Assembly (NCBI GenBank): GCA_964353175.1
Contig: CAYGUX010000010.1
Span: 7,995-71,994 of the forward strand
Reading direction: 5' to 3'
Source: an uncultured Bdellovibrionales bacterium
GTDB lineage: Bacteria; Bdellovibrionota_C; UBA2361; SZUA-149; DAOLCO01
DNA: 64,000 nt
Shown: positions 8,201 through 35,147 of the stretch, one piece after another
Position numbering within the stretch: the stretch's first letter is position 1
Layout: every line of letters begins with the position of its first letter
Notes under the pieces: generated by a model
Told to the model about the DNA's origin: nothing
The model's input: only the letters and a program-made list of their open reading frames with translations
The model's database searches: none
Position numbers and translations under genes: made by a program

Positions 8201-8245
8201 AAAAAGATAATGCTGTAATATGAGTGAGGCTCATATTACAGCATT
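8201..8245 (-). terminator. Rho-independent terminator closing the minus-strand arm of the T4SS-like locus
   Basis: Perfect 16-bp stem (8209-8224 / 8230-8245) with a 5-nt loop, followed on the minus strand by a U-rich stretch (plus-strand AAAAAG, 8201-8206). It lies 30 nt past the stop of the 175-aa gene. Confidence 0.65.
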
Positions 8246-8274
8246 CTATCTGGCTTCGCTACTGCAACTGTAAC

Positions 8275-8802
8275 TTAAGCATCAAATCGAGATACTTCGC
8301 TATCATCTACTACAATAGATCGTTTGCCCACACCATTTTGAGCACCAGAGATAATGTCACCGTATAGTGGAGAGCAGGACATAGTAAGAACTGCATTACA
8401 TGCAAGCTCTATGCAAAGAAGATCTCTTGGCCCAAGCTTAATCCTTCTTCTCTCTTCTTCGCTTCTACCTGAGATGATTCTAAGCCAGCAAACCTCTTCA
8501 CCTGTTAAAGCACCTTGTGCACCTTTAGGTTTGTCTCTATAGAGTCTGATAAGGATATCTCCACTATCGTCTTTCATGATTATACCTTCATCTAATGACT
8601 CAACGCCATATAGAAAAGCTCTTGATGTAGCCCATATCCCACCAACGGCCTGTATTGGAACCGCTATGTCACATGCTCCTAAAGAGTCTGGTTGTGGTTC
8701 ATTTTTTACCTTAGGGATGTAAACCAATCTTAAGCCAATTGGTTCAGGAATCAATTGTAGTGTTCCAAAAGACTTTGCTATTGTAAAATGCATTCCGCTC
8801 AT
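8275..8802 (-). CDS. Hypothetical cytoplasmic protein (175 aa), last gene of the coupling-protein operon
   Basis: Track ORF with no signal peptide or TM segment. It has a cysteine cluster CIELACNAVLTMSC. It sits 51 nt downstream of the T4CP gene. Confidence 0.55.
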   Translation of the reverse strand: MSGMHFTIAKSFGTLQLIPEPIGLRLVYIPKVKNEPQPDSLGACDIAVPIQAVGGIWATSRAFLYGVESLDEGIIMKDDSGDILIRLYRDKPKGAQGALTGEEVCWLRIISGRSEEERRRIKLGPRDLLCIELACNAVLTMSCSPLYGDIISGAQNGVGKRSIVVDDSEVSRFDA

Positions 8803-8853
8803 AGTTTTCCTTCTCCGTTTTGTTAAACCTAATATTTGCTATTTATAAAGCAT

Positions 8854-11184
8854 CTATTTCTTTTTATTTCTACTTTTGTCAATTCTATTAAAAGTTGGCT
8901 TAGTCACTTTTTCACTTACTTTATTTTTCACTGAATTAGGTGCGACTATAACTGTACCTCTAATATTTTTATTTCCTAGTCTCAATCCGCCTTCCTTAGC
9001 TTCTGATGGTGGAGTCTCTTGAGCAATATTCGACTTCTCTTTTTTTTGTTCATTTTCAGAACTTGCTATGTTATGCTCTTTTGTTTGCGAATTGTTATCT
9101 ATAATCTTGTCATCATCAGTTAGTTTTTCTTTTTGGACTTTGGGAGGTACTGCTAGAGTCATTCTTGATCTATTAAAGCCTTTAAAAGATTTTAGTAAGT
9201 TAAGCCTAAAACCACCTTCTTCTGGCTCGCTATTATCAGAGTCATTTTTTGACGTGGAATCATTTGTAGTTGTTGAATTGGAAGAACTCCCCTGGCCATT
9301 ACCATTTCCGCTAACGACGCCATCGGAATAGTCTGATTTCGCTCCTCTTTTCGCTTCTCCTTGCTCTATTGATAGAATGTGTTCATCTACCCACTCCGCC
9401 AATCCAATTTCATCGGCTTCCACAGCCTCGTACTTAGTTAGATACTCTCTTCCTTCCCAAGTTGAAGGTACGTCCGCATCAAACCATATTGCGCGACCTT
9501 TTCTTAACCTTCCATCGCCTTTATCGAACCACGCTAGACCTTTTTCTGCAGACATTTCGTGTTTCAATTCCTCCGCACTTACTAAATCAGTTTCATCTTC
9601 TGCAAATGTAACGCCATCTCTAAATCCATCTGCTGATCGTTTATTCAATTCTAAATGTTTAGTCAATTCTCTAGAGTTCAAACTGGATGACATTCCTGTA
9701 GCAAGTGTTTTTTTGGTGACATTAATCTTACCAATCCATTCGCACATATCTTCTGCAGTTTTATTATCTCCTATTCGCATAATAACTTTTAGATTTACGT
9801 TTGCAATTACTCGTTCATAGAATTGTTCACTTAAGCCCATGGATTGATCCATAAGACCACCTACTGACTGAGCTCCAAATAGTAAGGCAAATCTTCCTTT
9901 CCTTGCTAACTCAAATAGGTTCGCCCATGTTGGACCAAAAGTAGAGGCCCCCTCATCAATTATTACAAGATGAGGATCTTCTAAGTGATGCGATCTACTA
10001 GATGTGACTTCACCGATCGAAACTTCTAGATCTTCTCTAAATACTTTTACCATTCTAGCGGCACTTTCAGCTTCTTCTAGTCGTGGAAGCATGTAATAAA
10101 CTATTTTCCCTCTGAGAATGGCGTCAGTAAGTGATAGATCTGCTCTAGGGACACAGAACATTTCACCTGCGTCTGAATTGGCAATAGAGTGTAGCTCTGA
10201 AGCGATTCCTCTAAGGTTGTCGGTTAATCTTTGAGAGTCCAATGCTCCTTTTAGATTTCTATATGAGCTTGCTAAATGACCAAGTTCGATCATCGCTTGT
10301 TTAGATCCTTGTTCATGAAGAAGTTCTCTCATTCTTGGGTAGGCGTAGTTAAAGGCCGATAAGGCTACCGCGATGTCTCTAACTGACCATGCTAGCCCAA
10401 GACTTTCCATGGCTCTAACTACTCGATATACAGCGTCTGCAGCTAGTCTATCGTAATGCTTAGTTGTACTTTGATCAGAAGTCGGTGGTAGTCCACAACG
10501 TAGGACCTTTCTAGCTTTTACATCTGCCCTTTGAGTTGTGAATACAAAGTTATAGGCGCATACTGGGTCAAATGGATCTACAACTACGATATCCTCTATT
10601 CGGCCAGTAATGAGGGCCATCATAATTAAGTCAGCTAATGTACCTGGATCCCGCTTCGCATCAATAAAAGTAAATCCACTAGCACGTCCACGAGCTAGTT
10701 GTTGGAACATTAGGCCTTCAAGCCACAATGTTTTACCAACTCCTGTTTTTGCAAATACACAGCCGTGACTACAAATTTCGTCATCAGAAACCCAAATAGG
10801 CTTACCATTATCTAGTTCAAATCCTACTAGATATTTATCAATCATAGGTTTGCCCTTATCTCTGGTCTCTTTTAGGGCTTCATCAAAAGCTTTTCTATCA
10901 GGTGGCATACCTAATACGTCTCTACCACCTCTTCTTGTTGATTCTTCATGGCGTTCCCTCTCTAGCCATTCATGAAATCCTCTAATATAGGCTAATGAGA
11001 TAAATCCTAAAAATGGGAGAATTCCACCTATGATTAGAAATGAGAGTGGAGTAAGTCTATTTGCGAAGCCAGTTAGCGTAAAAAGACTTAAGGCTATTAT
11101 AAATGCCTTAACTAAGACACTAGCATTGTGTCTCCTTATCTCAAGCTGCAACCTGAAGTTCTCAATTATATAATCACGTGCCAT
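8854..11184 (-). CDS. Type IV coupling protein (TraD/VirD4/DotL family ATPase) with a long low-complexity C-terminal tail
   Basis: Two N-terminal TM segments, Walker A AKTGVGKT, then FIDAKRD (the xDxKGD-like motif of T4CPs), and Walker B HLVIIDEGAS. The last ~160 aa are S/N/K/E-rich. Confidence 0.85.
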   Translation of the reverse strand: MARDYIIENFRLQLEIRRHNASVLVKAFIIALSLFTLTGFANRLTPLSFLIIGGILPFLGFISLAYIRGFHEWLERERHEESTRRGGRDVLGMPPDRKAFDEALKETRDKGKPMIDKYLVGFELDNGKPIWVSDDEICSHGCVFAKTGVGKTLWLEGLMFQQLARGRASGFTFIDAKRDPGTLADLIMMALITGRIEDIVVVDPFDPVCAYNFVFTTQRADVKARKVLRCGLPPTSDQSTTKHYDRLAADAVYRVVRAMESLGLAWSVRDIAVALSAFNYAYPRMRELLHEQGSKQAMIELGHLASSYRNLKGALDSQRLTDNLRGIASELHSIANSDAGEMFCVPRADLSLTDAILRGKIVYYMLPRLEEAESAARMVKVFREDLEVSIGEVTSSRSHHLEDPHLVIIDEGASTFGPTWANLFELARKGRFALLFGAQSVGGLMDQSMGLSEQFYERVIANVNLKVIMRIGDNKTAEDMCEWIGKINVTKKTLATGMSSSLNSRELTKHLELNKRSADGFRDGVTFAEDETDLVSAEELKHEMSAEKGLAWFDKGDGRLRKGRAIWFDADVPSTWEGREYLTKYEAVEADEIGLAEWVDEHILSIEQGEAKRGAKSDYSDGVVSGNGNGQGSSSNSTTTNDSTSKNDSDNSEPEEGGFRLNLLKSFKGFNRSRMTLAVPPKVQKEKLTDDDKIIDNNSQTKEHNIASSENEQKKEKSNIAQETPPSEAKEGGLRLGNKNIRGTVIVAPNSVKNKVSEKVTKPTFNRIDKSRNKKK

Positions 11185-11193
11185 ATTTAACTG

Positions 11194-13344
11194 CTATCCC
11201 GTCGCTAGATTTTTTTTATCTACTTCTATTTCCTGAGGGGCTGGTTCCGCAGATGAAGTATCTAGTATGTTTTCATATTCAATTGTATCTACATGTATTT
11301 CAATATCGTCTTGTGAAGGTGAATTGCTGTAATAGGTTTTCTCCCATGTCTTTCCTAGTATCTCTACAAATCTTCTTTGTCTTAGAGGGACTAAGGCATC
11401 CATAAATAAAAACTTATCTTCTTTATTTATCTGTGATTGTTTTAGAATCGCATGAACGATACCGACGATAGGGACCGAATCATCGCCGATTCTTGTAGAG
11501 AGCCAATTGTTCTTAGTAAGCATCCTCCGAACAATTCTCCATTGCTCATTCAATTCCTTACCGTTAGGGAGCGAAAGTATCTTTTTAATTATTAAATTAT
11601 CTTCCTCTCCACTAGAAAATGCTTCCATAGCTTGTCTTTTAAAGCCAGGTAGTCTTGCGGCGGTACTAATCCTAGTTTGAAACTTTCTGGTGTGATCAAG
11701 AAGAGTTGAGATCCTAGACAAGCGATTCTTATGAAGTCCAGTTAATGCAGTCTCTATAAGTTTATCAAGAGGCAATAGAGTCACAGACTTATAGGCCAAG
11801 CCGATTTTTAATTTATGTTGATTGCCGTTACTTTTATTTGCTAGTTTTATTTCTTCTGTGAAGTTATTTCTGAAACGTACATGAATTTCTTCAATATGGG
11901 CATCCAGTTCTACAAGTTCCGCAGTTTCACTCTGTTTTACAGGTTCTGTATAAAGAATTTCTAAAAAGTCTCTGAGTGCTCTACTTTCAATTGGCATTCT
12001 AATAGGAAGAAATGCTCGAGAAAAATCTCCGTGCCTTCGACTGGAAATTATGGCTTGTCTAATTATAAGCTTTTGATCTCCATCGTATTCTTTATGGTAG
12101 TGAGTTAGGGAATGAATTACTGCTCTCGCTTGAAGATGTGGATACATCGAGATTTTGGAAAATACTTTTGCATGTCGTTTATATACTAAGCACTTACCTG
12201 CTTCTATAGCTAGATAGGCACTTGCAATCATCTGTGGTGATAACTCAGCAAGTGCAAATAGTTTTAACGGAGTTAGAGTTGTTACGAGAATTTTAGTTAC
12301 TGAGCCTGAGGAGCTAACTAGTTTATTAATAGCCTCTACATGTGCAGGATAGTTTTTATCTAGATCAAGTGGACTTAGATTGTTCTTTTTTAATGATTTT
12401 ACATAGTTTACAACTATATTATGTGCCTTTAATACTTGAGGTAAGGCGAGGCTTGTTCCATCTAGTAATGTTCCTTTTTCGGCTGTGTATAGTCCAGAAT
12501 GTGAAGCTCGCATAGTCGAGTCAAGGGAACTATCTAATTCGTCAGCTTGAATTGAATTTTCTTCTTCCACGAAATGGGGATAGTCTTTATGTGCTAGAAC
12601 AACTCTAACTAGATCAAGATTCGTTTGGCTATATGCAGAATATTCCTTTAGTATTATTGATAATTTACTTGATTCCGCATTTGTGATTTGTTCCATGGGT
12701 GGACATGCAAGACCGGGGCAAGATAGTTCTGTACCACTTATACTGTTATTGGGGTTGAATGGCCCATATATCCCTGAATAAAAAGGACCTTTGCCTCGGT
12801 CGCATACTCCAAGTATGGAGTCACTTGCCACCTTCTTGTTCCTATATTTAAATCCCCAATGACCAATGATGCCACCTAAAATCCAGTAAGGGAGGGCGAT
12901 CAATAGTAGGAAGCTAATTCTAAGTATCGCAGATACGATAACTCTACTTAGCCATGTGAAAATATCTGCAAAGGTAAAAGGGACATCGACGATGTCACTT
13001 GTTTTTGAAGGCTCTGATAAAAGGTTGAAGGTATTATCTAATTCTGATGCTAGTGCTATGTAAAGCTTACTCGCCCCTGGAACCATTACAAAAAGAGAAT
13101 CATCTAAAAATTTTGCTCTACTGAGAACTGTCTCACGAATGTTCTCAACCCATGGGTCTAATGCATGAACTTCTTCCGATCCATCTTCTGATGTATAGGT
13201 GACTGTGGGAAGAATAAAATATCGAGAGAGGAGAAGCCCTACGATGCATAGAATTACCAAACGTTTAACAGGCCAACGACCAGCCAGACTTTCATCAGTC
13301 TGTCTTCTCAAGTCAGATAGTCTTTGACCTAATTCGTAACCCAC
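11194..13344 (-). CDS. Large membrane-anchored protein of unknown function (716 aa), immediately upstream of the T4CP
   Basis: Track ORF with about three N-terminal TM segments (LVILCIVGLLLSRYFILPTV; VIVSAILRISFLLLIALPYWILGGIIGHWGF) and a ~540-aa soluble domain. Only 9 nt separate it from the T4CP start. Confidence 0.65.
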   Translation of the reverse strand: MGYELGQRLSDLRRQTDESLAGRWPVKRLVILCIVGLLLSRYFILPTVTYTSEDGSEEVHALDPWVENIRETVLSRAKFLDDSLFVMVPGASKLYIALASELDNTFNLLSEPSKTSDIVDVPFTFADIFTWLSRVIVSAILRISFLLLIALPYWILGGIIGHWGFKYRNKKVASDSILGVCDRGKGPFYSGIYGPFNPNNSISGTELSCPGLACPPMEQITNAESSKLSIILKEYSAYSQTNLDLVRVVLAHKDYPHFVEEENSIQADELDSSLDSTMRASHSGLYTAEKGTLLDGTSLALPQVLKAHNIVVNYVKSLKKNNLSPLDLDKNYPAHVEAINKLVSSSGSVTKILVTTLTPLKLFALAELSPQMIASAYLAIEAGKCLVYKRHAKVFSKISMYPHLQARAVIHSLTHYHKEYDGDQKLIIRQAIISSRRHGDFSRAFLPIRMPIESRALRDFLEILYTEPVKQSETAELVELDAHIEEIHVRFRNNFTEEIKLANKSNGNQHKLKIGLAYKSVTLLPLDKLIETALTGLHKNRLSRISTLLDHTRKFQTRISTAARLPGFKRQAMEAFSSGEEDNLIIKKILSLPNGKELNEQWRIVRRMLTKNNWLSTRIGDDSVPIVGIVHAILKQSQINKEDKFLFMDALVPLRQRRFVEILGKTWEKTYYSNSPSQDDIEIHVDTIEYENILDTSSAEPAPQEIEVDKKNLATG

Positions 13345-13870
13345 TTTACAAACCTTTTTCTGATTCTTTATTACACATCAATGTACTAAAGAGTGTTTCT
13401 ACTTAAAACTAGTAGTATAATGATTCTACTCATTTATGCAAGTACCTATGAGAAAGAACAGATATCTACTATTCACCTATAAACCTTTAACCTTAAGCAT
13501 AGCCAACGCGGGCCGATCTTTAGAGTCTTTTCTATTATGAATCATCAGAGGTATTTGGTCTCTTAGTGTTCCCATATTATGTTAGTAGGTTCTTTCATTC
13601 AAATTAATGAAGTTGAGATTGCTCCTTTGTGATTTTTGTCGAAATTTGCCTCTATCGCTACTTCTTTAATGTTTCTAGTGGCTTAGTGCCCTGATCTGAA
13701 ATAAGTCTTTAATATTTAACTGTTTACATCAATTGAGAAGCACACTTCTGTCAGTTCTTGAAATAACAATGAAGGACAAGATGTAAGAGGATTATAGAGT
13801 TGTCTAGTAGATCCATAAATATAGGTGGATTAAGTGGATGTTTTTATTAAATTGATGTGAGTGAGCTGGT

Positions 13871-14944
13871 ATGAAAAATAAAATAATGTTTTTAAGTGTA
13901 TGTTGCCTTTCTTTGTTAATAGGGGCTGGGGATGCAAGAGCAGAAGCACAATATGCTGGTAAACAAAGATCAACAGTAGCTAAGGCTCATATGAGTAGGG
14001 CTAGAACATTGCTTGTTGAAGCCTTAGAAGAATTTGAAGAGGCAAGGAAATATGCAAGGCCAGATTTACTTCTTGATTCTGAGGATTTTAGACTTCGAGT
14101 TATCTCCCTTACTGAACAGCTAAATAGAGTGATTGATCCTAGACCTAGGATTACAAGAGAGGGCGCTGTTTTTAGAGTTCCTCCTCGCCTTGTAAAAAGA
14201 GAAAAAGACAATCTACCGATAGTTTCTGACGGAGCTAAGAGCCGTAGTGATTTTGGCGAAAGAGATAGAATGGAGTCAAAACAACGTGAAAGAGCTAGGC
14301 TTTTTAACTCAGGATCTAATAAAGAGCCTATGAGAGTGGCTAAAAATAATACCTCTAAAACAAACATTCCACAGGAATTAGAAATCCCTAGCGAGCCTGA
14401 GTTGAACATTGATCATTCAGATCCAACTAAAAATAGAGGGCCATTAAATGAAAAAGCACTATTTACAGAAGAGCTTATGCCTCAAATCCAAGCTAATAAA
14501 GACAGAGAGGCAGCAAGGCAGCATGATTTGGAAAACAGAAAAGTTGAAATAGAAGAAGAACTTGTCGATCCAAAGTTAGATGGGAAAACCTCAGAAGATG
14601 TTGATATTATTGAGGAAGAGACTACTCCCTCTAAACAAGTAGCTCCGGTTGATTCAAATGTTGTCGAAGAAATTGATGATGAGGAATCTTTATTAAAAGA
14701 TGAACCAATAGAAAACCCAAGTGTAAAAGCACTTAGAGAGAATCTTCAGGCAGACTACGAGGATGAAGCAGGTAAAAAGGTTGTGAATGAAATACCTAAA
14801 CCTGAGGCTAACTTGGGAATCGATGGCCAAATTAGTGAGGACGATTTAGCGCCTGAGGAAGCAAGAAAACAGTTAAGTGAAGATGAAGAGTTAGCAAAAC
14901 GCTTAGAAGATACAGTTTATGACAGGATTAATTCAGGGAAATAG
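13871..14944 (+). CDS. Secreted, highly charged (E/D/K-rich) low-complexity protein; first gene of the plus-strand T4SS-like operon
   Basis: Signal peptide MKNKIMFLSVCCLSLLIGAGDARA. The C-terminal two thirds are acidic and low-complexity (EEELVDPKLDGKTSEDVDIIEEETTP...). Confidence 0.6.
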   Translation: MKNKIMFLSVCCLSLLIGAGDARAEAQYAGKQRSTVAKAHMSRARTLLVEALEEFEEARKYARPDLLLDSEDFRLRVISLTEQLNRVIDPRPRITREGAVFRVPPRLVKREKDNLPIVSDGAKSRSDFGERDRMESKQRERARLFNSGSNKEPMRVAKNNTSKTNIPQELEIPSEPELNIDHSDPTKNRGPLNEKALFTEELMPQIQANKDREAARQHDLENRKVEIEEELVDPKLDGKTSEDVDIIEEETTPSKQVAPVDSNVVEEIDDEESLLKDEPIENPSVKALRENLQADYEDEAGKKVVNEIPKPEANLGIDGQISEDDLAPEEARKQLSEDEELAKRLEDTVYDRINSGK

Positions 14945-14973
14945 ATTGTTTTATATAAGCATTAGGGGGACTT

Positions 14974-15393
14974 ATGAGAAGTGATGACGGAGAGGTGTTA
15001 CAGGGCTTGGATGAAAGTTGGTCGTTTATGGGGGCTAACGCAATGGAGTGGGGAAGTGCCCTGGCGGTATTCATGTTGATTAGTTTATTCGCCGATAGTG
15101 TAGCACGAGCAATGCCCTTCATGCTTGTTGGTGGAGTTATGACCGCAGTAACTTTAGCATCAATGAGAAAGAGCTTTCCTGATGAGGAAAGAGGGGTAAG
15201 AAATGCTGTGGCAACATATTTTGGTTTTCCTCCTCCGGGGATCCCTGCTCCATCAAAACTGCAACCAGTTTGGAGCGGAGCGCCTTTAAGAGAAATTCCT
15301 AAGAATTCGAGGTTTGTAAAAATTGGGTTATCTCAAATGTTTGATACTTTTGAGAGACAATATACGGATGCAGTGGAGCAAAAGAAGGATTAG
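14974..15393 (+). CDS. TraL/VirB3-like small inner-membrane protein
   Basis: LQGLDESWSFMG, followed by two TM segments and then a basic patch (MRKSFPDEERG), as in TraL/VirB3. It holds the first position of a TraL-E-K-B-V-C order. Preceded by a GGGGGA RBS. Confidence 0.5.
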   Translation: MRSDDGEVLQGLDESWSFMGANAMEWGSALAVFMLISLFADSVARAMPFMLVGGVMTAVTLASMRKSFPDEERGVRNAVATYFGFPPPGIPAPSKLQPVWSGAPLREIPKNSRFVKIGLSQMFDTFERQYTDAVEQKKD

Positions 15394-15427
15394 AGCCGAC
15401 TAGGGGGTAGGTTTTAAGAGGGGAAAC

Positions 15428-16153: not shown

Positions 16154-16160
16154 TAGAGGT

Positions 16161-16982: not shown

Positions 16983-17031
16983 TTGGTGGAAAATGGTAGC
17001 TGAGGTAAGGGAATTGGGAGTTTTATAGAAT

Positions 17032-18207: not shown

Positions 18208-18227
18208 TGGTTTTAATGGAGGGGCGT

Positions 18228-18734
18228 ATGAAAAATAGAATGTTAGTAACAGTATTCAGTGCGTTAGGGATTATGTCTCTTAATGCTTGTGCGACTACTG
18301 GTGATTTTGCGGATAATCTTAATCCCTATTCGGATGGAAATAAAGTTTCTACCGAATATGGAGGGGAAAGAAATACTAATGCATTAGGTGGTGGTAGCGG
18401 GGCTGGAAAGGAAGCCGATAATGCTAGACATGCCCTGGAAGTGCTAGGTACATATAGAAAGGCTCAAACCCCTGAACCTGCTTATCCGGTAATTCAACCA
18501 GCAGAAGTTCGTCTAATGTGGATCCCAGATCATTTAAATGCGGTAGGAGACTTGGTTCCTGCTCACTATTACTACCTAAGAGTGCTTCCTGATAGACCTG
18601 CGGTTACTGACGCATTTGAAATTGAGAGACAACTTGATTTGACTCGTAGTGGTAGCGCTTTGTCGTCTAGCGGAAACTTGGGAACCTCAGGTGATGGTGA
18701 ATCTACACCGTGGGTTTATAAAGAAGTTAAATAA
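18228..18734 (+). CDS. TraV-like outer-membrane lipoprotein
   Basis: Lipobox SLNAC, and the TraV-type motif RLMWIPDHLNAVGDLVPAHYYYLRV (compare family R-I-W-I-x-P-x-x-D...G-x-L-h...y-v-y). I chose the ATG at 18228, preceded by GGAGGGG, over the track start 18207. Confidence 0.6.
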   Translation: MKNRMLVTVFSALGIMSLNACATTGDFADNLNPYSDGNKVSTEYGGERNTNALGGGSGAGKEADNARHALEVLGTYRKAQTPEPAYPVIQPAEVRLMWIPDHLNAVGDLVPAHYYYLRVLPDRPAVTDAFEIERQLDLTRSGSALSSSGNLGTSGDGESTPWVYKEVK

Positions 18735-18751
18735 AAAATTGGGAGTGTGGG

Positions 18752-19225
18752 GTGAAAAATAATAGAACAGCAATTCTAGTAGCAGGGCTTTTCGGGGCGA
18801 CTACTTTGATGCAGGCTTGTAGCTCTACTCCAGTCTATAGGGTGGTTAAATATCAGCCAGCATTCAGGCAAGAGGCTCCACAGCCCGTATATAGTCGATT
18901 AATGTGGTCACATCTTCCAGAGCCGATCAAGCCTAGAACGAGAGCTGAAGCCCCACTTATGTTGCCAGAAGTATTCGTAGAATTAAAAAATGTAACTGTA
19001 GATGAAGCAGTTGAGGCAATAGCGCAGACTATGGGGTATCGCTGGGATAGTAGCGGAATTGCCTCAGGTTCTAGAATAAGTATTCACAGAGAGGGTACAG
19101 TCGAAGAGATAATTCTAGAAATTAAAGCTAAAACTAATCTACCTCTTGAGTTAGATCATGAGAATAGAGTGATTAGGTTAGCTGATAAGAGGTTATTACC
19201 ATCGCTACCAGGCCAAGCGAAGTAG
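18752..19225 (+). CDS. Lipoprotein with a secretin-N0/TcpQ-like domain (PilL/DotD-type)
   Basis: GTG start after GGGAG. Lipobox LMQAC. The C-domain VTVDEAVEAIAQTMGYRWDSSG...RISIHREGTVEEIILEIKAKTNLPLELDHENRVIRL matches the N0/TcpQ pattern seen in PilL and DotD/TraH lipoproteins. Confidence 0.5.
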   Translation: MKNNRTAILVAGLFGATTLMQACSSTPVYRVVKYQPAFRQEAPQPVYSRLMWSHLPEPIKPRTRAEAPLMLPEVFVELKNVTVDEAVEAIAQTMGYRWDSSGIASGSRISIHREGTVEEIILEIKAKTNLPLELDHENRVIRLADKRLLPSLPGQAK

Positions 19226-19262
19226 GAAGCTACTTTGGTAAAACTTTATTGGAGAAAGGTTT

Positions 19263-22016
19263 ATGAGCATTACTCGTTTAACGAGACAGAGATTATATCA
19301 AGATGAAGCTGTTTTTAATCAGTTGCTTCCCTATGTAAAGTGGGATTCGGAAAATGGTGTATTCGTTCATGGAGATGCTTCTTTTTGGTCAATTTGGCAA
19401 TTAAAACCAGTACTTTTAACCTCTATCTCTGATGCAGCTGCATTTCAGACTTGTAATGGAATCCAAGAAATTGTTGATTCCATGGATTGTCGAATTAGTT
19501 GCCAATTTAGTTGGGTAACGACCTTTGATGTTCAAGATATTTTAGATAGATGTTTGTATGACTATCCTTTACAAGGCGTCGCTGGGTGGATGGCAAGACG
19601 TTGGGTAAGACTTGTAAAGAACATGTCAAAGTCACAACAATACGAGAGAAGATGTAAACGCCTAAAATTAATCGTAGCTTTTCGATACGATCCACCATGG
19701 AAAGAAAAATCTCCGATTGAGGATCTTACAGATACATTCAAAACTTTGTTTCAAGGGCCACAAGGTCCAGAAGTAGATACTACAAGAATTGAAGAGTATA
19801 AGCGTTATTTAGAAAAATTTAGAGGTGAGATTGATGGTAAGGTTGCGCGCCTAGGGGATTTAGGAATGCATCCAAGCAGAATTGATGGCCAGGGCTTAAT
19901 TAATCTCCTTTATCCACTATTGAATAGAAGAAGTACTAAGGGTGGTAAGTTTAAAAGAGGTAGATTTAATAGTTGTGCAGTTCCAAAGTATGATCCAGAT
20001 GATATTTTATCAAATCAGATATCGAATACCATGGTATATCATCCAGAAGATGGATTTTTGCAGAAGGATGGTCGTTACTATCATACCGTAAGTATGATAA
20101 AACCTCCTAAGCAAGCTTTGCCTTTAATGACTATTCCTATTCAAAGCTTACCGATGGAGTCTATCTTTACGGTAACATATTCAAAAGATAGTCAAGAAGA
20201 TCAAATGAAGCGTTTGGATAGATTAGATCAAACTCTAGGACTCAGAGAGTTCGGAGCGAGAGGAAGAGCAAATCAGAAAGTGCTTCATCAAATTAATACT
20301 ATTCGTAAGGCGAGAGAAGAACTATATTCAAATAGATCTCAAGTTGTTCGAGTAGGAGCCCATCACGTACAAATTACTAATACACTTGATGAAGCTAGAA
20401 GAGCTTCAAGTGAAGTTTTGGCGATGTTCCCTGCACTGAATGGTGCGCGAGCGATGAGTCATATGATTAGTGATTTAGGTGTATTTTTAAATGCTCTGCC
20501 TGGAGCGTACGATCCATCTACAGATGGTCCAGGGTGGACATCGATGATCACTTCTTCAAGAGCGGTGAGATTATTTCCTGTTTGGGGTAACTGGTCAGGT
20601 AGCGAGAGTTCTTTATTTGTACTACCTAGTTTATGGAATAGAGAGCTAGTTCATTTTGATTTATATGACTCTAACGTAGCTCCTAACGTTATCATGAGTG
20701 GTGTATCGGGGGCTGGGAAGAGTTATTTACTATGTTACTTCTTGATTACTCTAAATCGAGGTCATTATGCTGAAAAGTCAGATGGTACCAAGGAAGTAAG
20801 GGAACCAATTACATTCGTATTTGATAAAGGGATGCCTAATCTTCCTTGCGGATTTGAGAGAGTTGCAAAGTTATTCGGAGGTCGAATCTATCAAGCAACT
20901 CCAGCAAGAGCTCCAGCAATGAATTTCTTGGCTCGCTTAGGAGAGATGGATCCAGATAGAACAAACGAAGACTTCAAAGATTTGTTTGATATATGTGTGG
21001 ATATTATCGCTGATATGGGTAGCGAAAAGGATAAGGTCTTAAGTCGAATTCAAAGAAACGAAATCATTGAATCTTTAATGGAATCTCATTATAGATACCG
21101 TCATGGAGATAGAGAAAGAGAGTTTCTACTAAGAGATGCTGTGAAGGTTTTAAAAGAACCACCGCGTCCGAACGAAACAGAAGCACACTTTCATATGAGA
21201 CAAGAGTTAGCAATTCTTATGAGAGAGTACTACGGTGACGGAACCTATGCTAGATTCTTTGATAGAGCTGGAAGACTTGAACTAAAAGAAAGATTTATCG
21301 TATTCGATCTAAAAGGTCTCAGCAGAAATCCAGATCTACAAAGAGTATTTTTGAAAGTAGCAATGATCTGGGCGGATGAGGTTATGAATACACCTCATGA
21401 GTTGGATACTCGAAAACTACTAGTTTTCGATGAGGCACATGACTTAATAGGTAAAACTGCATCAGGAGTTGTTGAGGCTGCATTTAGACTATATCGAAAA
21501 CGTAAAGGTATTGTAATCGCAGCGTCACAATCTGGAGAAGATTTCTATGCAGGAGAAGGCGGGCAAGCAATTGTTCAAAACTCTTCCCATAAAATATTTT
21601 TAAGACAGGATCCTTCTAAGTTCCATGTGACTGCACAGGCTTTTAATTTAAATCCTCAGCAAGCTGAAACGATAACACGGTTACATACTATTAAGGGTGT
21701 GGAATCGCAATTCTTCTTATTGTCAGATATTGGAGAGGCGGCTTTAGTATTGCCAGCAGAGCCATCGTTTTATTGGGTATCTACGAATAATGGTGATGAT
21801 AATCAGTTGTTCTCCGCACTATTAGAAGAAACTGATGGGGATTTCGTTGCGGCTCTAAAGAGAGCAGTAGAAATTGCGCCATTTGGAGCTAAAGATCTTA
21901 TTAAGAGAAGGAAAATGTTGGAGGAACATTATCAAGCTCTAAGAGATCAAGGGGATGTGTTGGCTCCAAAAGCTGGTAGAGCATTGGATTTAAAATCAGG
22001 ATTAAAAGCAGCCTAG
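19263..22016 (+). CDS. TraC/VirB4-family T4SS ATPase (917 aa)
   Basis: Walker A GVSGAGKS and Walker B LLVFDEAHD, with a size and N-terminal region typical of TraC-type VirB4 proteins. Confidence 0.85.
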   Translation: MSITRLTRQRLYQDEAVFNQLLPYVKWDSENGVFVHGDASFWSIWQLKPVLLTSISDAAAFQTCNGIQEIVDSMDCRISCQFSWVTTFDVQDILDRCLYDYPLQGVAGWMARRWVRLVKNMSKSQQYERRCKRLKLIVAFRYDPPWKEKSPIEDLTDTFKTLFQGPQGPEVDTTRIEEYKRYLEKFRGEIDGKVARLGDLGMHPSRIDGQGLINLLYPLLNRRSTKGGKFKRGRFNSCAVPKYDPDDILSNQISNTMVYHPEDGFLQKDGRYYHTVSMIKPPKQALPLMTIPIQSLPMESIFTVTYSKDSQEDQMKRLDRLDQTLGLREFGARGRANQKVLHQINTIRKAREELYSNRSQVVRVGAHHVQITNTLDEARRASSEVLAMFPALNGARAMSHMISDLGVFLNALPGAYDPSTDGPGWTSMITSSRAVRLFPVWGNWSGSESSLFVLPSLWNRELVHFDLYDSNVAPNVIMSGVSGAGKSYLLCYFLITLNRGHYAEKSDGTKEVREPITFVFDKGMPNLPCGFERVAKLFGGRIYQATPARAPAMNFLARLGEMDPDRTNEDFKDLFDICVDIIADMGSEKDKVLSRIQRNEIIESLMESHYRYRHGDREREFLLRDAVKVLKEPPRPNETEAHFHMRQELAILMREYYGDGTYARFFDRAGRLELKERFIVFDLKGLSRNPDLQRVFLKVAMIWADEVMNTPHELDTRKLLVFDEAHDLIGKTASGVVEAAFRLYRKRKGIVIAASQSGEDFYAGEGGQAIVQNSSHKIFLRQDPSKFHVTAQAFNLNPQQAETITRLHTIKGVESQFFLLSDIGEAALVLPAEPSFYWVSTNNGDDNQLFSALLEETDGDFVAALKRAVEIAPFGAKDLIKRRKMLEEHYQALRDQGDVLAPKAGRALDLKSGLKAA

Positions 22017-22023
22017 GAATAAT

Positions 22024-22350
22024 ATGAATGTACGAAATGTTGTTAAAATAAGTTCTTCTTTACTATTACTTTCGGTAAACGCATGTTCATTATTATGGAG
22101 TAGTGAACCAGAAAGCAGAACAGTTGTTGTCGAATCTTATCGAACTAGTCTTGATGCAGAACCTGTCCCGGGAACAGTAATTGGGCCATGGGCTGAATCG
22201 ATGTATCAGGATGTAAATGTGCCGGGAGCTATTGATAAAAGAGGTGTTTATTATCGAATGCCTCATAAGACCATTGTAGAGATTCGTGCTGAGAAATATC
22301 AAAGAGCGCAGTATTCTGATCCTGATGGTCTATATAGGGAGAGAGAGTAG
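22024..22350 (+). CDS. Small lipoprotein (108 aa), paralog A
   Basis: Lipobox LSVNAC. Shares the pattern PVP.G ... W.E ... D..(V/G)PG ... YY ... (E/A)IR with the next ORF. Confidence 0.55.
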   Translation: MNVRNVVKISSSLLLLSVNACSLLWSSEPESRTVVVESYRTSLDAEPVPGTVIGPWAESMYQDVNVPGAIDKRGVYYRMPHKTIVEIRAEKYQRAQYSDPDGLYRERE

Positions 22351-22352
22351 TT

Positions 22353-22676
22353 ATGAATATGATCAAGATTTCTTTGGCTTCATTACTTTTAGGGGGTTTC
22401 TTAACGTCCTGTTCTAATAGTATGATTGCTGGAGAAGAGGATGTGCAGACTATTTATGTGGGGTACAATGATAAGGCTCCAGTTCCTCCTGGTGTGTTGC
22501 GTTATTGCTGGGAAGAACCAGTGGTGGAATTCCAAGACAATGGGCCAGGCTTAAATAGTGATAAAACGTATTATCAACCTGAGTTTGTGGCAATAAGAAT
22601 GGTGAAGCAGGGTAGGTGGAGACCATGCACTACTCAAGCTAGTGAAATTAGGGGAGAAACGAAAAATGAACGCTAA
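22353..22676 (+). CDS. Small lipoprotein (107 aa), paralog B
   Basis: Lipobox FLTSC. Shares the same motif pattern as 22024-22350, and starts 2 nt after its stop. Confidence 0.55.
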   Translation: MNMIKISLASLLLGGFLTSCSNSMIAGEEDVQTIYVGYNDKAPVPPGVLRYCWEEPVVEFQDNGPGLNSDKTYYQPEFVAIRMVKQGRWRPCTTQASEIRGETKNER

Positions 22677-23142
22677 AAAAGTTCTGAGTCTAATATTATG
22701 TTCTTCTGCTTTTACTAAAAGAAATTTATCTTCCTTGGGATTAGTCGCATTTTTCTTTTTTGTGTATGTTTTAGCAGGAGGGAAGATTGATACAGCTATT
22801 CCTAGTCCCAGTAAGATCGGAGGATTTGGTGATGGTGTTTCTCAGAATCCCTTGGGCTTAATGAGAGCTGAATCTCATACTGTTTCTAACGAAGTACTAG
22901 GTATAGAATCCACTGAGGCAAGAGCCGCTAGACAAGGTGCATTACATTCTCGGGGAAGAATTTTTGATCAAGACGAGAGAAAATCCTTGGAGGAACAAGA
23001 TATTGATCATAGTCGATTAGTTGATGGCTCAGCTTCTATGAAACCATCTAGAAAAGAGCAGAAAGCTATAGATCGATCTACTAGAAAGGAAGTTGATCCT
23101 TTGTTAGCAATAGAAGAGCGATTAAATCGTCTTGGTAAATAG
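22666..23142 (+). CDS. Membrane-anchored hypothetical protein
   Basis: I prefer the ATG at 22666 (MNAKKVLSL), preceded by GGGGAG, over the track start 22642. One TM (LGLVAFFFFVYVLAG) and a charged C-terminus. It overlaps the previous stop by 11 nt. Confidence 0.5.
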   Translation: MNAKKVLSLILCSSAFTKRNLSSLGLVAFFFFVYVLAGGKIDTAIPSPSKIGGFGDGVSQNPLGLMRAESHTVSNEVLGIESTEARAARQGALHSRGRIFDQDERKSLEEQDIDHSRLVDGSASMKPSRKEQKAIDRSTRKEVDPLLAIEERLNRLGK

Positions 23143-23169
23143 TAGCCCTAGATTTATAAAGGTAGATAA

Positions 23170-23877
23170 ATGTCTAAATCGGATAGTGGAGACTTTGATG
23201 ATGTTGACTTTGATTCACTTGGTAGTGGACTAGGAGAATCAAATTATCCTTTAGATGAAGTTTTTGGTAATGGCTCATCAATAGACCAAGCAAAGGAGCT
23301 CGGTGCTAAAGTCACCGGCATAGATGATGGTGATAGTTCCGTTCGGTACCATTTTTTTCCTACTTGGAGAAGTCAGATTATTAATCAGCTTTGGTTTTTC
23401 CTAAGTTCTTTTGGAGCAATCTGGGTTTCTAAAACTATTCCGGAGTGGACTATTATTGTAGGAGAGCTTTTTAGTACTAGCTCTACTCGATATAATTTAC
23501 ATCTACCTATTCTCGTATTGGTCCCAGGATTTTTTCTTTCTAAGATTCTAATTCATATTTATAACTCGGTTTATATTATAGATGAAAGTGGCATTGAGGC
23601 ACAGGTTGGGCTTGTTTCATTCAATTTACGGCAACCAAGGCTTAGGTGGGAGGATATTAGAGGAATAGAACCTTCTCAGAATATTTGGGAGCGTTTAGTG
23701 AATATTGGAACGGTGAAAATCGGAAGCGCGATGACGCAAGAGGCTGAAATTGTTATGGAAGGGATTGCAAATCCTAGAGCTGTTCAACTTTTAGTTAATT
23801 CAGAGAGAGCTAAAAGATTAGAAGAAATGAAGCAATCTGGTTCAAGTTACCGACAAGGGGTTGTAGGGGGAGACTAA
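23170..23877 (+). CDS. Membrane protein with a bacterial PH (bPH_2 / YdbS-YdbT-like) domain
   Basis: Acidic N-terminus, two TM segments, then YIIDESGIEAQVGLVSFNLRQPRLRWEDIRGIEPSQNIWERLVNIGTVKIGSA...MEGIANPRAVQLLV, the typical bPH_2 pattern. Confidence 0.6.
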   Translation: MSKSDSGDFDDVDFDSLGSGLGESNYPLDEVFGNGSSIDQAKELGAKVTGIDDGDSSVRYHFFPTWRSQIINQLWFFLSSFGAIWVSKTIPEWTIIVGELFSTSSTRYNLHLPILVLVPGFFLSKILIHIYNSVYIIDESGIEAQVGLVSFNLRQPRLRWEDIRGIEPSQNIWERLVNIGTVKIGSAMTQEAEIVMEGIANPRAVQLLVNSERAKRLEEMKQSGSSYRQGVVGGD

Positions 23878-23930
23878 AATTTCTTAATCTCCTTACCTGA
23901 TTTTAGGTACTTAGGGGATTTAAGGAATTT

Positions 23931-25307
23931 GTGACTATTCAAGCTAAATTTTATAGAAATCATTTTAGATCATATTTAACAGGTCTAAGCTGTGGACTTC
24001 TTCTATTGTCTACACCTATATCAATTGCCTATGCTGAAAAAGCAGCAAATAAGAAAGATTCTAGAGCAAATTTAAATAGCGAAACCAAGAAAGAAGAAAT
24101 TCAAGAAAAGAAAAGTGTGTTCGTTGTTTCTGGCGGAGAAACTAAAACTTATAGCAATCTATCAGAAGTTATAGAAGAGAATAATGCGCTAAAAGAGCAA
24201 AGACAAATTCTCTTAGATCATTCACGATTGTTAAGAGATAAATACAAAAAGTTATATGAATATTGTTCTACTGGTGCCAATAACTGCTCAGGGCTAAGGG
24301 GTGAGAGGAATGACGAGGTTGTTCCTAGCGCGGAAGTTCAAAACCTAAAGCAGCAAATGTCTACATTAGAATCTAGTAATAAAGTCCTAGAAGCAAGTTT
24401 AAAGAAAGCTAAAAGTGAAATTCAGGATAAGGCTAGCGAGCTAGCGAGTTTAAAGAAGGAGAGCTTAAATCATTCTGCGTCCAATGATGAGCTTCTTATG
24501 AAGAGTTCAAAAGAGTTAGAAGAAAGCAGAAAGCTGATCGCGGATAAAGATGCTGAGATAGTACGCCGTAGCGAAGAGTATGCAAAGCTTCAGGTTGAAT
24601 TGGAAAATAAGTCTAAAGGAGAAAAGGCCTGCTTAGATCAGATTGAAACATCAAGTAATATTCTTCTAAAGATCCCTGAACTGGAAGCTGAGATTGTAAA
24701 TTTAAGAAATCAACTTTTACTAAAGAAAACTACCGCAGAGTTGTTGGGTGTAAAGGTGGGGAATACCTCTAATGCTCACGATGTTGTTGGGTCGTTAAAT
24801 TCTTCAACTCAAGTTCTGTCAAAACAAGTAGAATCACGATCTGCAATTGAATCAGTACAGTTTGCTTCTGATGTGGCAATAGTAGAAGTAGTAGGAAGTA
24901 AGGTAAGCTTAAGAGTAGGACCAGGAACGAATCACTCTTCTTTAATGGATGTTCAGAAGGGGACTAGGCTAACAGTCGAAGCTAAAGAAGGGGATTGGTT
25001 AAGAGTAAATGCCCCAACTGGGGGTAGAGCATACATCGATTCTAACTACGTAAGGTCATTTGATAAGAATGGAGTGCTACTTAGTGAAGCTAAGTCTTCG
25101 GAGCCAATATTTGATCCTACGAGGGACTTGTCAGTGAATATTGATGCTCCCGAGCCTAAGAAGCCAATTATTCCACAAAAGGCCCCTAAAAAGGTTAGCA
25201 AAAACAAGGCTGATAAGGAGGTGGAACCATTTGGAGAGCAAGCTAGCGCGGAGTCCGTCGCAATGGAAAAGCTTCTGCAAGCTATGAGTCAGCCTGAAAA
25301 GAAATAG
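23931..25307 (+). CDS. Secreted coiled-coil protein with a C-terminal SH3b domain
   Basis: GTG start, a signal peptide ending IAYA, ~200 aa of heptad-like E/K/L-rich sequence, then the SH3_3 pattern VSLRVGPGTNHSSLMDVQKGTRLTVEAKEGDWLRVNAPTGGRAYIDSNYV. Confidence 0.65.
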   Translation: MTIQAKFYRNHFRSYLTGLSCGLLLLSTPISIAYAEKAANKKDSRANLNSETKKEEIQEKKSVFVVSGGETKTYSNLSEVIEENNALKEQRQILLDHSRLLRDKYKKLYEYCSTGANNCSGLRGERNDEVVPSAEVQNLKQQMSTLESSNKVLEASLKKAKSEIQDKASELASLKKESLNHSASNDELLMKSSKELEESRKLIADKDAEIVRRSEEYAKLQVELENKSKGEKACLDQIETSSNILLKIPELEAEIVNLRNQLLLKKTTAELLGVKVGNTSNAHDVVGSLNSSTQVLSKQVESRSAIESVQFASDVAIVEVVGSKVSLRVGPGTNHSSLMDVQKGTRLTVEAKEGDWLRVNAPTGGRAYIDSNYVRSFDKNGVLLSEAKSSEPIFDPTRDLSVNIDAPEPKKPIIPQKAPKKVSKNKADKEVEPFGEQASAESVAMEKLLQAMSQPEKK

Positions 25308-25320
25308 TCATAATATAACC

Positions 25321-25833
25321 ATGGATAGCCATAAATTAAATAGACTTAAATATCTCACGACCTTAGTCTTATTTTTAACTTTTTTACCTGAAACTATTGC
25401 TGAGAGCCTACTTACAAGTACATCAGGTATTGTTTTTCCGCTTCTAGCACCAAGAATATCTAGTGGATATGGCTATAGAAGCCATCCAATAAAAAAGGCA
25501 CGCAAACATCATAATGGTGTCGATCTTGCTGCACCTGAAAAAAGTCATGTAAGAGCAATTACAGACGGTATGGTCGTATATGCCGGAAACTTAGGTGGAT
25601 ATGGAAAGGTGGTTACTATAAAGCACCAGGATGATCACATCTCATTGTATGGGCACTTAAGTTCAATCGAGGTAGTTGTGGGACAATTGGTAACAGCAGG
25701 TGCATTGGTAGGTAGAGTTGGAAGTACCGGAAATGTAACTGGCCCGCATCTCCACTTTGAGTGGAGGAAGGGAAGGAAATCTATAAATCCATTAAAAGTA
25801 TTTCCTGATTTAGCAAAAGAGCCAGTAGGATAA
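25321..25833 (+). CDS. M23 family (LytM-type) peptidoglycan metalloendopeptidase
   Basis: HNGVDLAAP ... ISLYGHLS ... GSTGNVTGPHLHFE, the canonical HxxxD / HxH M23 motifs, with an N-terminal signal/anchor. Confidence 0.85.
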   Translation: MDSHKLNRLKYLTTLVLFLTFLPETIAESLLTSTSGIVFPLLAPRISSGYGYRSHPIKKARKHHNGVDLAAPEKSHVRAITDGMVVYAGNLGGYGKVVTIKHQDDHISLYGHLSSIEVVVGQLVTAGALVGRVGSTGNVTGPHLHFEWRKGRKSINPLKVFPDLAKEPVG

Positions 25834-35140: not shown

Positions 35141-35147
35141 TTACACC

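Follow-up and report, generated by a model that had tools for sequence, protein, structure and literature searches.

A chromosomal type IV secretion system locus, distantly related to F-type systems and likely core to an uncultured Bdellovibrionota-labelled clade

In a 64,000-nucleotide stretch of DNA from an uncultured Bdellovibrionales bacterium (GenBank assembly GCA_964353175.1, contig CAYGUX010000010.1; hereafter the window), we analysed a locus at positions 8201-25833 that, judged by its gene content, is a real type IV secretion system (T4SS). The locus, known from its genes alone, likely specifies a functional chromosomal T4SS that is inherited vertically, is core to an uncultured, Bdellovibrionota-labelled clade and represents a new subtype, a distant relative of F-type systems, and there is a real chance that VirB4 phylogeny could make the system a new mating-pair formation (MPF) type. 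Its parts comprise an inner-membrane platform (a TraC/VirB4 ATPase, a TraE/VirB8-like protein and a small protein with two transmembrane (TM) segments in the TraL/VirB3 slot), an envelope-spanning core (TraK/VirB9-like, TraB/VirB10 and TraV/VirB7-like proteins, a DotD/N0-like lipoprotein and one or two mini-lipoproteins) and a wall module (a membrane protein with a bacterial PH (bPH) domain, a coiled-coil SH3b protein and an M23 peptidase with intact catalytic motifs), to which many relatives add a pilin.

Results

A T4SS core and ATPase in the plus arm

The T4SS identity rests on matches to TrbI, TraC_F_IV/P-loop_TraG and TraG-D_C above the Pfam thresholds, on a TraB profile that matches TraB in the PDB, on TraK, TraV, TraE and DotD matches that recur in the family, on the gene order E-K-B-V-...-C and on intact Walker motifs. 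TraB/VirB10 (17032-18207; all genes of this arm are on the plus strand), a bitopic protein with a coiled-coil linker, scored 59 bits against Pfam TrbI (gathering threshold, GA, 35) and thus provides the VirB10 of a T4SS. A four-sequence TraB family profile matched the TraB chains of PDB entries 7spb and 7okn (E=4e-12). The TraC/VirB4 ATPase (19263-22016) scored 34 bits against TraC_F_IV (GA 28.1) and 37.4 bits against P-loop_TraG (GA 25.8), which identifies it as a VirB4 protein, and both its Walker A (GVSGAGKS) and Walker B (LLVFDEAHD) motifs are intact. By far the best VirB4 model for TraC was the F-type TIGR02746 (6e-53), followed by VirB4_CagE (4e-33) and the PFGI-1-type traC (4e-11). The F-type models were the best-matching ones despite low scores, which missed the equivalog cutoffs for TIGR02746 (180 vs 567), TIGR02761 (19 vs 109), TIGR02756 (19 vs 124) and PRK13729 (22.5 vs 504).

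Sub-threshold assignments were tested by Pfam scans of family members from related loci, for which the slots other than those of TraK and TraV, among them the TraE, TraL, N0-lipoprotein and bPH slots, were pooled into a single scan of 139 sequences. The TraE/VirB8-like bitopic inner-membrane protein (15428-16153) matched Pfam TraE at 1.1e-3 and TIGR02761 at 8.8e-4, below the curated cutoffs, and TraE matched 13 sequences of the pool, which held 23 TraE-slot proteins (best 3.8e-7). For the TraK/VirB9-like periplasmic core-complex protein (16161-16982, with a signal peptide), the window protein matched TIGR02756 at 1e-3, and of the 27 family members scanned, 22 matched TraK_C (best 1.6e-5) and seven TraK_N, likewise below the curated cutoffs. 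Pfam TraV matched 30 of the 31 family members of the TraV/VirB7-like outer-membrane lipoprotein (18207-18734, lipobox LNAC), again sub-threshold (best 2.3e-5). Matches were weak for the DotD/N0-domain-like lipoprotein (18752-19225, lipobox-like MQAC): in the pool, with 23 such proteins, DotD gave five matches (best 5e-3) and STN two, and the window protein itself matched STN at 0.07. Signal peptides, lipoboxes and TM topology agree with the TraE, TraK, TraV and lipoprotein roles.

The TraL/VirB3 slot is occupied by a 139-aa protein (14974-15393) that is present in 70 loci. The TraL model matched none of 23 slot members, and the protein fits TraL by its position upstream of TraE and its two TM segments only. 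Comparison of the TraL and TraE family alignments with single plasmid TraL and TraE sequences by hhalign was uninformative even for TraE and is therefore silent on TraL. Among PDB sequences, neither family-profile hmmsearch (TraK, TraV, TraE, TraL) nor single-sequence phmmer (TraC) gave a meaningful match. An earlier reading of the same DNA, made from the letters and an open reading frame (ORF) list and here called the sequence-only reading, had proposed all of these Tra assignments. Its TraB, TraC and coupling protein now stand above Pfam thresholds and its TraE, TraK, TraV and N0 proteins are weak but recurring, while its TraL is left without HMM support.

The arm opens with a secreted protein carrying a signal peptide (13871-14944), in which a helical region of about 100 aa at the N-terminus is conserved, whereas the acidic tail is variable. 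It occurs in 66-69 loci with a median length of about 150 aa, and neither the window protein nor its family had a Pfam match. An exact 16-nt direct repeat, CCTGATAGACCTGCGG, shared by the TraB gene (17449-17464) and the TraV gene (18588-18603), is probably due to chance.

A coupling arm with two putative partners, system-specific or uncharacterised

The minus arm, all on the minus strand, encodes a 776-aa type IV coupling protein (T4CP) of the VirD4/TraD family (8854-11184), which begins with two TM segments and ends in a C-terminal tail of low complexity. It scored 27 bits against Pfam TraG-D_C (GA 22), which marks it as a coupling protein, and its Walker A (AKTGVGKT) and Walker B (LVIIDEGAS) motifs are intact; the sequence-only reading had rightly called these motifs intact in both the T4CP and TraC. 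The match to TIGR03743 SXT_TraD (1e-17) was far under the cutoff. The nearest T4CPs of conjugative plasmids are about 27-28% identical and lie on MPF_F plasmids, e.g. Aromatoleum EbN1 plasmid 1, on which the complete set of MPF_F signature genes (TraW, TraU, TrbC and TraN among them) is annotated around the T4CP. The T4CP also matched the PADLOC model mad8, a component of the MADS defence system (3e-13), which probably reflects the shared TraG/VirD4-like P-loop domain and not a defence role. PADLOC returned no match for the two other proteins of the arm, and a defence-system identity of the minus arm was rejected, the T4CP-mad8 pair being the only result.

An orphan T4CP, 61% identical to that of the window and, at 50-63% identity, about equally distant from all clade T4CPs, lies beside a protelomerase gene at 19785-21854 of pLBX, a linear megaplasmid of the cyanobacterium Leptolyngbya boryana (L084, NZ_AP014640.1). 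It could reflect ancient relatedness, or transfer between the clade and cyanobacteria. As only the T4CP is present there and no other system gene lies nearby, pLBX was dismissed as a second full system.

The second protein of the arm (11194-13344) has 716 aa and is membrane-anchored, with hydrophobic segments at residues 26-49 and 128-163. Its large C-terminal domain is mostly helical, has many invariant Arg residues and is predicted by the positive-inside rule to be cytoplasmic. The window protein had no Pfam or NCBIfam match, 35 family members had no Pfam match, and neither a PDB sequence match nor a plasmid homologue was found. A search of its profile against 1.84 billion representatives gave 259 proteins; the 150 listed all belong to the same family, as full-length proteins or fragments, and no bridge to another family appeared among the matches listed. 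Two AF2 predictions were run with database homologues, one for this family and one for the 175-aa family. The model of the 716-aa protein (pLDDT 79.7) had nothing significant in PDB or BFVD by Foldseek, and the faint names returned (YhaM, prob 0.66; PDE4D; a Pandoravirus phosphohydrolase), of HD/phosphohydrolase type, were not taken as evidence. The 716-aa protein is specific to this system and shows no recognisable likeness to relaxases. A MOBH/TraI-like relaxase was rejected for want of any domain, PDB, plasmid or outside-family match, and VirB6 was rejected because the protein has only two to three TM segments.

The third protein is soluble, has 175 aa (8275-8802; the database gene call begins at Met4) and is very strongly conserved, with 64 invariant columns in 35 homologues, including KLYRDKPKG and EERRRIKLGPRD. 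None of its 583 homologue clusters has a Pfam domain. Its AF2 model (pLDDT 82.8) has the secondary-structure order (beta4-alpha)x2, and Foldseek matched it to Arabidopsis WHY2 (4kop, E=9e-4, prob 1.0, TM-score 0.55-0.61), to human PUR-alpha and to trypanosome MRP1/2 (prob 0.98-1.0 and TM-score up to 0.61 over these three) and, more weakly, to SsgB. By this model, the protein has a Whirly/PUR-like (sPC4-like) fold, whose superfamily members mostly bind single-stranded nucleic acid (PMC12065111), and as a partner of the T4CP it is a candidate for single-stranded nucleic-acid binding or for an adaptor role. The sequence-only reading had likened the arm to traI-traD-traJ of SXT- and PFGI-1/ICEclc-type elements; this likeness found no support, as the 716-aa protein has no relaxase signal and the 175-aa protein is soluble with a Whirly/PUR fold.

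Cell-wall module and small lipoproteins

Three genes at the 3' end of the plus arm point to the cell wall. The secreted LytM-type M23 metallopeptidase (25321-25833) scored 115 bits against Pfam Peptidase_M23, its HxxxD (HNGVD) and HxH (HLH) motifs are intact, and the gene is present in 49-50 loci. The secreted coiled-coil protein before it (23931-25307), found in 57-59 loci, ends in an SH3b domain of peptidoglycan-binding type (Pfam SH3_3, 38 bits, GA 27). On these domain matches, both assignments are solid. The bPH-domain membrane protein (23170-23877) matched bPH_2 at 1.9e-3, and the pooled scan, with 14 bPH-slot proteins, gave 14 bPH_2 matches (best 1.5e-10). Two mini-lipoproteins of 108 aa (22024-22350, lipobox VNAC) and 107 aa (22353-22676) are paralogues with 33% identity (E=5e-4), and distant relatives have a single copy. 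The wall module and the paralogy had both been read correctly from the sequence. Between the mini-lipoproteins and the bPH protein lies a basic 166-aa protein with a single predicted TM segment (22642-23142), a slot that distant relatives fill with another TM protein, about 125-147 aa long.

In the closest relative, L004, the M23 gene is absent after the SH3b gene, indicating that the 3' end of the operon is plastic. Its place (18328-21176 of L004) is taken by a 111-aa ORF and two small overlapping minus-strand ORFs of 92 and 93 aa, which might be a toxin-antitoxin pair.

Distribution and inheritance of the locus

One genome per GTDB species was scanned with the TraB alignment, which gave at least 121 confirmed relatives, and 80 of them were examined. 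All 80 are metagenome-assembled genomes (MAGs) labelled Bdellovibrionota or Bdellovibrionales (most of them), Oligoflexia or "Deltaproteobacteria". When the 80 loci were searched with the 17 locus proteins by tblastn, all of the genes were recovered, with order and orientation kept, as far as the fetched DNA reaches. Full-length homologues of TraC number in the hundreds, at 61-89% identity, and come from MAGs named Oligoflexia, Deltaproteobacteria, SAR324 or Dadabacteria. Within the clade, identity is 53-93% for TraC, 33-85% for TraB, 22-51% for the 716-aa protein, 55-76% for the T4CP (22% in the outlier L002) and 55-74% for the 175-aa protein. The nearest plasmid TraC proteins are 21-25% identical, and none exceeds about 25%.

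The flanks vary and consist of housekeeping genes (SAICAR synthase and a sigma factor, fatty-acid desaturase, GcpE, trmFO, E2/lipoyl synthase). The sequence-only reading had asked for a synteny check between menA and sufE; gene order is kept in the relatives, but the menA flank is found only in the closest ones (L004, L008 and one further genome). Two of the genomes with unlinked arms give further flanks: in L086 (GCA_035324615.1, 10001-16199), the 716-aa/T4CP/175-aa arm lies beside menA (UbiA family) with E2 and lipoyl synthase upstream, and in L006 (1-7000) the plus arm adjoins trmFO. Compared with the window, L004 and L008 are 89-90% identical in TraC and 44-50% in MenA, so TraC is far more conserved than that housekeeping enzyme. 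Across 55 genomes, the GC content of the locus tracks that of its flanks from 32.5 to 60.4% (r=0.987). The distance matrices of the T4CP, 175-aa, 716-aa, TraB, TraK and TraE proteins correlate with that of TraC (r=0.89-0.97, 27 genomes).

Synteny, GC tracking, co-evolution of the arms and conservation together indicate long vertical residence, co-inherited arms and strong purifying selection. On this evidence the locus looks host-owned and not like a mobile element, and the earlier view of a host-owned, T4SS-derived machine that is not decaying was borne out. A decaying remnant of an integrative conjugative element (ICE) was rejected on synteny, GC tracking, housekeeping flanks, the lack of integrase and att sites and the clade-wide TraC identity. 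The generic marks of an ICE or island were likewise missing, with no integrase, att repeats, tRNA junction or atypical GC, and with the locus in at least 121 species.

Another explanation is that the locus is one cluster of a split, SXT-like ICE, with the relaxase, integrase, pilin and TraW/U/N/F/H/G encoded at other places in the genome. The unlinked arms of some genomes (L005, L006, L023, L054 and others), the varying positions of the pilin and M23 genes and the scope of the searches, which covered the window and fetched stretches only, would suit it. Yet such an ICE would have to be reconciled with at least 121 species with differing housekeeping flanks, a locus GC equal to host GC over a 28-point range, the TraC and MenA identities of the same genome pairs, the lack of an integrase, att repeat or tRNA-adjacent junction, and TIGR037xx ICE models far under their cutoffs. 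We regard the split-ICE explanation as close to refuted, with hardly any probability left.

It is also very improbable that the arms are separate systems, with the T4CP arm an independent ATPase module (e.g. for defence or DNA handling) beside a T4SS-derived envelope structure. Such a division would account for the genomes in which the arms are unlinked, for the mad8 match of the T4CP and for the 61%-identical orphan T4CP alone on pLBX. Against it, about 40 loci have the arms side by side in divergent orientation, the distances of the T4CP, 175-aa and 716-aa proteins track those of TraC (r=0.89-0.95), the 716-aa and 175-aa proteins drew no PADLOC match, and a T4CP with a VirB4 is the canonical T4SS pairing.

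Pilin and missing components

When all locus ORFs were clustered, about 35 loci turned out to share a conserved gene, of about 130-140 aa, that follows the M23 gene directly (e.g. L001:17086-17505, L002:16484-16873 and L003:15662-16123). The encoded protein has a long leader ending in Ala-x-Ala and a mature part of two hydrophobic helices split by a Tyr-Arg/Lys motif, and the Pfam TrbC/VirB2 pilin model matched 17 of 34 such proteins (best 2.9e-5), indicating a family pilin of VirB2 type and not TraA type. The sequence-only reading had reported no pilin; this holds for the window and its nearest relatives but not for these 35 or so loci, so that a lack of pili is not a property of the family as such. 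A 68-aa two-helix ORF of L010 was rejected as a pilin, having no homologue anywhere and being probably spurious. In 22 loci (e.g. L002:20636-22615), the pilin gene is followed, a few kb downstream, by the gene for a conserved minus-strand protein of about 660-770 aa in which Pfam recognises no domain; this protein has no homologue in the window and may be only a syntenic neighbour.

Domain scans covered the 17 locus proteins, three flanking proteins and 20 of the other window proteins, none of them ribosomal; the ORFs outside this set belong mostly to the ribosomal-protein operon. Among the proteins scanned there was no integrase, and no TraW, TraU, TraN, TraF, TraH, TraG or TrbC by Pfam or NCBIfam, in line with the earlier reading, which had also listed an obvious relaxase, a VirB6/TraG-like channel protein and flanking direct repeats as absent.

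Several findings weigh against a functional T4SS of the kind proposed. The relatives' pilin HMM (--max), run on all stop-to-stop ORFs of the 64-kb window, found no pilin, and neither did an architecture scan of the same ORFs, so that a pilin hidden there was rejected; nor was a pilin found within the fetched DNA of the closest relatives L005, L006, L010, L011, L013, L017, L018 and L020. Pilin and M23 genes are not always adjacent to the locus, as the M23 gene of L004 illustrates, and the two arms are unlinked in the genomes named above. No VirB6/TraG-like polytopic channel protein was found in the locus or in the relatives' fetched stretches: no locus protein has more than two to three predicted TM segments, and the relatives' loci hold no conserved polytopic protein. 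In the solved T4SS, VirB6 belongs to the inner-membrane complex and the stalk. No relaxase was detected among the scanned locus, flanking and window proteins (Pfam, NCBIfam), and 40 divergent intergenic regions have no conserved oriT-like motif; both results weaken a DNA cargo. The missing components may lie elsewhere in the genomes, the search having covered the window and fetched stretches. In addition, that the clade is predatory is an assumption taken solely from its taxonomic label, expression of the locus and secretion by it are predictions from gene content, and SsgB has a Whirly fold without nucleic-acid binding.

These results also bear on whether the machine might release chromosomal single-stranded DNA into the medium, as the Neisseria gonorrhoeae gonococcal genetic island (GGI) does, or take DNA up, as Helicobacter ComB does, instead of injecting a substrate into another cell. 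A chromosomal F-related core with its own peptidoglycan hydrolase, as in the GGI, the Whirly/PUR-fold partner and a pilin that is dispensable in part of the clade would agree with such a role. GGI export, however, requires a relaxase (TraI) and oriT, neither of which was detectable here, and ComB-type uptake systems have no T4CP, which at this locus is among the most conserved parts. We therefore consider release or uptake quite unlikely.

Layout and surroundings of the locus

The ORF listing gave 17 intact genes, three in the minus arm and 14 in the plus arm. The sequence-only reading had counted 18, with 15 in the plus arm, although its own list also enumerates 14. Its divergent arrays, 526-bp control region, terminator, intact ORFs and short gaps agree with our coordinates. 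The arms diverge from the control region (13345-13870) and none of their ORFs is interrupted. In the plus arm (13871-25833), the biggest gap is 53 nt and the genes overlap at two junctions, while in the minus arm the stop of the 716-aa gene is 9 nt from the T4CP start and an intrinsic-terminator-like hairpin on the minus strand (8209-8245; 16-bp stem, then a T-run) closes the array.

Three copies of ACATCAAT lie in the control region (13374-13390, 13726-13734 and 13843-13859). A 17-nt inverted repeat (88% complementary) is made up by two of these copies, which lie about 30 nt upstream of the first start codon of each arm and may be an operator pair. This arrangement is specific to the window, and 39 intergenic regions of relatives do not conserve it. 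As no k-mer is common to 40 loci, the idea that the region between the arms carries a conserved oriT or regulatory motif was rejected.

The left neighbour is menA (7303-8193; TIGR00751, 153 bits vs a cutoff of 102). To the right lie a weak SufE/CsdE-like gene (25840-26268, E about 1e-4) and a rhodanese/sulfurtransferase gene (26269-27135), so the neighbours named by the earlier reading were found, SufE weakly. Other window genes are those of an ordinary chromosome (ABC transporter, peroxiredoxin, cyclophilin, ammonium transporter, PFK), and the window also holds, by position and gene sizes, the S10/spc/alpha ribosomal-protein region. Two tRNAs lie 5.5 kb left of the locus, with the ABC transporter and menA in between. 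The GC content is 39.2% in the locus and 38.0% in the rest of the window (about 38% overall), there is no compositional break across 8201-25833, and no att-like direct repeats were found flanking the locus.

Elsewhere in the window, 32892-37799 holds a three-gene block encoding proteins of 512, 237 and 883 aa. At its N-terminus the first resembles TadE/G, by a weak match that is sub-threshold, and the other two have no Pfam domain; the block could be a Tad/Flp-pilus-associated module.

Discussion

Proposed machine and cargo

In the T4SS that we propose, the M23/SH3b/bPH module would stand in for the VirB1 lytic transglycosylase and open the sacculus locally, and a three-part coupling module (the T4CP, the 716-aa protein and the Whirly/PUR-fold 175-aa protein) would feed substrates to it. 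The machine would export a macromolecule in a contact-dependent manner to another cell, the prey or partner of bacteria that are probably predatory. As cargo, a single-stranded nucleic-acid-protein complex has a slight edge over a pure protein effector, given the Whirly-fold partner and the conjugative-type T4CP, and its processing would fall to a factor different from a canonical relaxase. A protein effector is nearly as likely, because neither a relaxase nor a conserved oriT-like motif was found.

The effector idea can be taken further, to a protein-effector translocator that serves as a predation or host-interaction weapon like the X-T4SS or Dot/Icm, with the 716-aa and 175-aa proteins as adaptors or chaperones (cf. 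DotM and IcmS/W). Besides the missing relaxase and oriT-like motif, the locus is lineage-wide, chromosomal and vertical, as known effector T4SSs are, it includes a DotD-like lipoprotein, and its taxonomic label is that of a predatory phylum. The 716-aa protein is membrane-anchored and Arg-rich at conserved positions, features that recall DotM by analogy. However, no effector genes, XVIPCD-like domains or immunity pairs were seen next to the loci, Foldseek listed no DotM, IcmS/W or type III chaperone structures for the 716-aa and 175-aa models, and the 175-aa fold is of a single-stranded nucleic-acid-binding type. We rate such a translocator as possible but doubtful.

A bolder form of our proposal is that the system is an unrecognised T4SS class, that is, a new MPF type, which has been clade-core since its origin and whose new coupling complex injects single-stranded nucleic acid or nucleoprotein into prey or partner cells without a canonical relaxase. 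We put this forward tentatively and consider it unlikely; if true, it would amount to a relaxase-independent, host-owned pathway of DNA or RNA delivery.

Few T4SSs have moved from mobile elements to the status of host organelles (Dot/Icm, rvh, Cag, X-T4SS and ComB), and each has opened a field. The present candidate is fixed in at least 121 species of a clade that is uncultured and widespread in the environment, as its MAG names indicate lakes, ponds, rivers, wastewater and other habitats. It is notable for a locus without a VirB6 channel, a relaxase or the F-type pilus-assembly set, and for its new parts, namely two system-specific or uncharacterised T4CP partners and the M23/SH3b/bPH wall module. 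If it is the attack or exchange device of the clade, it would offer a molecular handle on the lifestyle of bacteria without a cultured member and, if the proposal is true, also a test case for the minimal requirements of a Gram-negative T4SS.

Comparison with known systems

No description linking Bdellovibrionota or Oligoflexia with a T4SS, TraC or VirB4 was found by full-text searches, and a comprehensive T4SS review of 2025 makes no mention of Bdellovibrio or Deltaproteobacteria (PMC12857230). The nearest affinity is F-type, yet the locus falls outside MPF_F, SXT/R391, PFGI-1/ICEclc and generic ICEs. With F-type systems (MPF_F of F and pED208; traLEKBV/traC of SXT/R391) it shares the traE-K-B-V...traC order and a small TM protein in the traL slot; its top models (TIGR02746, TraK_Ftype, TraE_TIGR and the PRK13729 TraB) are F-type, and its nearest plasmid T4CP lies in an MPF_F plasmid. 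Unlike them, it lacks the signature TraW, TraU, TraN, TraF, TraH, TraG and TrbC, a TraA-type pilin and a relaxase, has the bPH/SH3b/M23 wall module instead of a lytic transglycosylase, adds a DotD-like lipoprotein, mini-lipoproteins and novel T4CP partners, and is chromosomal and vertically inherited. The affinity to SXT and PFGI-1 elements suggested by the sequence-only reading gave way to the F-type models, as SXT_TraD (64 vs 366) and traC_PFL_4706 (42 vs 520) scored far under their cutoffs and no other TIGR037xx model matched.

Dot/Icm has in common with the present locus an N0 lipoprotein, DotD, which ours resembles, and a T4CP with dedicated, system-specific partners; homologues of DotC/H/G/F/O/B are absent here, and the partners are unlike DotM, DotN and IcmS/W in fold (Foldseek). 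The bacteria-killing X-T4SS of Xanthomonadales and a T4SS that has been proposed for Vampirovibrio chlorellavorus, a predator, are chromosomal and clade-conserved, have a T4CP and are used or proposed for contact-dependent attack. Both are of VirB/P-type with a recognisable VirB6, VirB11 and effectors (XVIPCD domains), whereas neither effectors nor VirB6 are recognisable at the present locus. The GGI T4SS of Neisseria gonorrhoeae is chromosomal and F-like, has a T4CP and dedicated peptidoglycan hydrolases and exports single-stranded DNA without a mating partner; our locus resembles it in being a chromosomal F-like T4SS with a T4CP and its own peptidoglycan hydrolase. The GGI is horizontally acquired and strain-variable, with a full TraW/U/N/F/H/G set, the relaxase TraI and oriT, none of which was found at the present locus.

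The rvh T4SS of Rickettsiales (PMC2653234) is P-type (VirB/D4), has duplicated components and occurs in obligate intracellular bacteria, while the system described here is F-related, has other accessory genes and comes from environmental MAGs. Like our locus, rvh is lineage-wide and chromosomal, with canonical parts missing and genes scattered or split, and was presumably exapted from conjugation. Lineage-fixed exapted T4SSs such as rvh are the closest conceptual parallels to the present locus.

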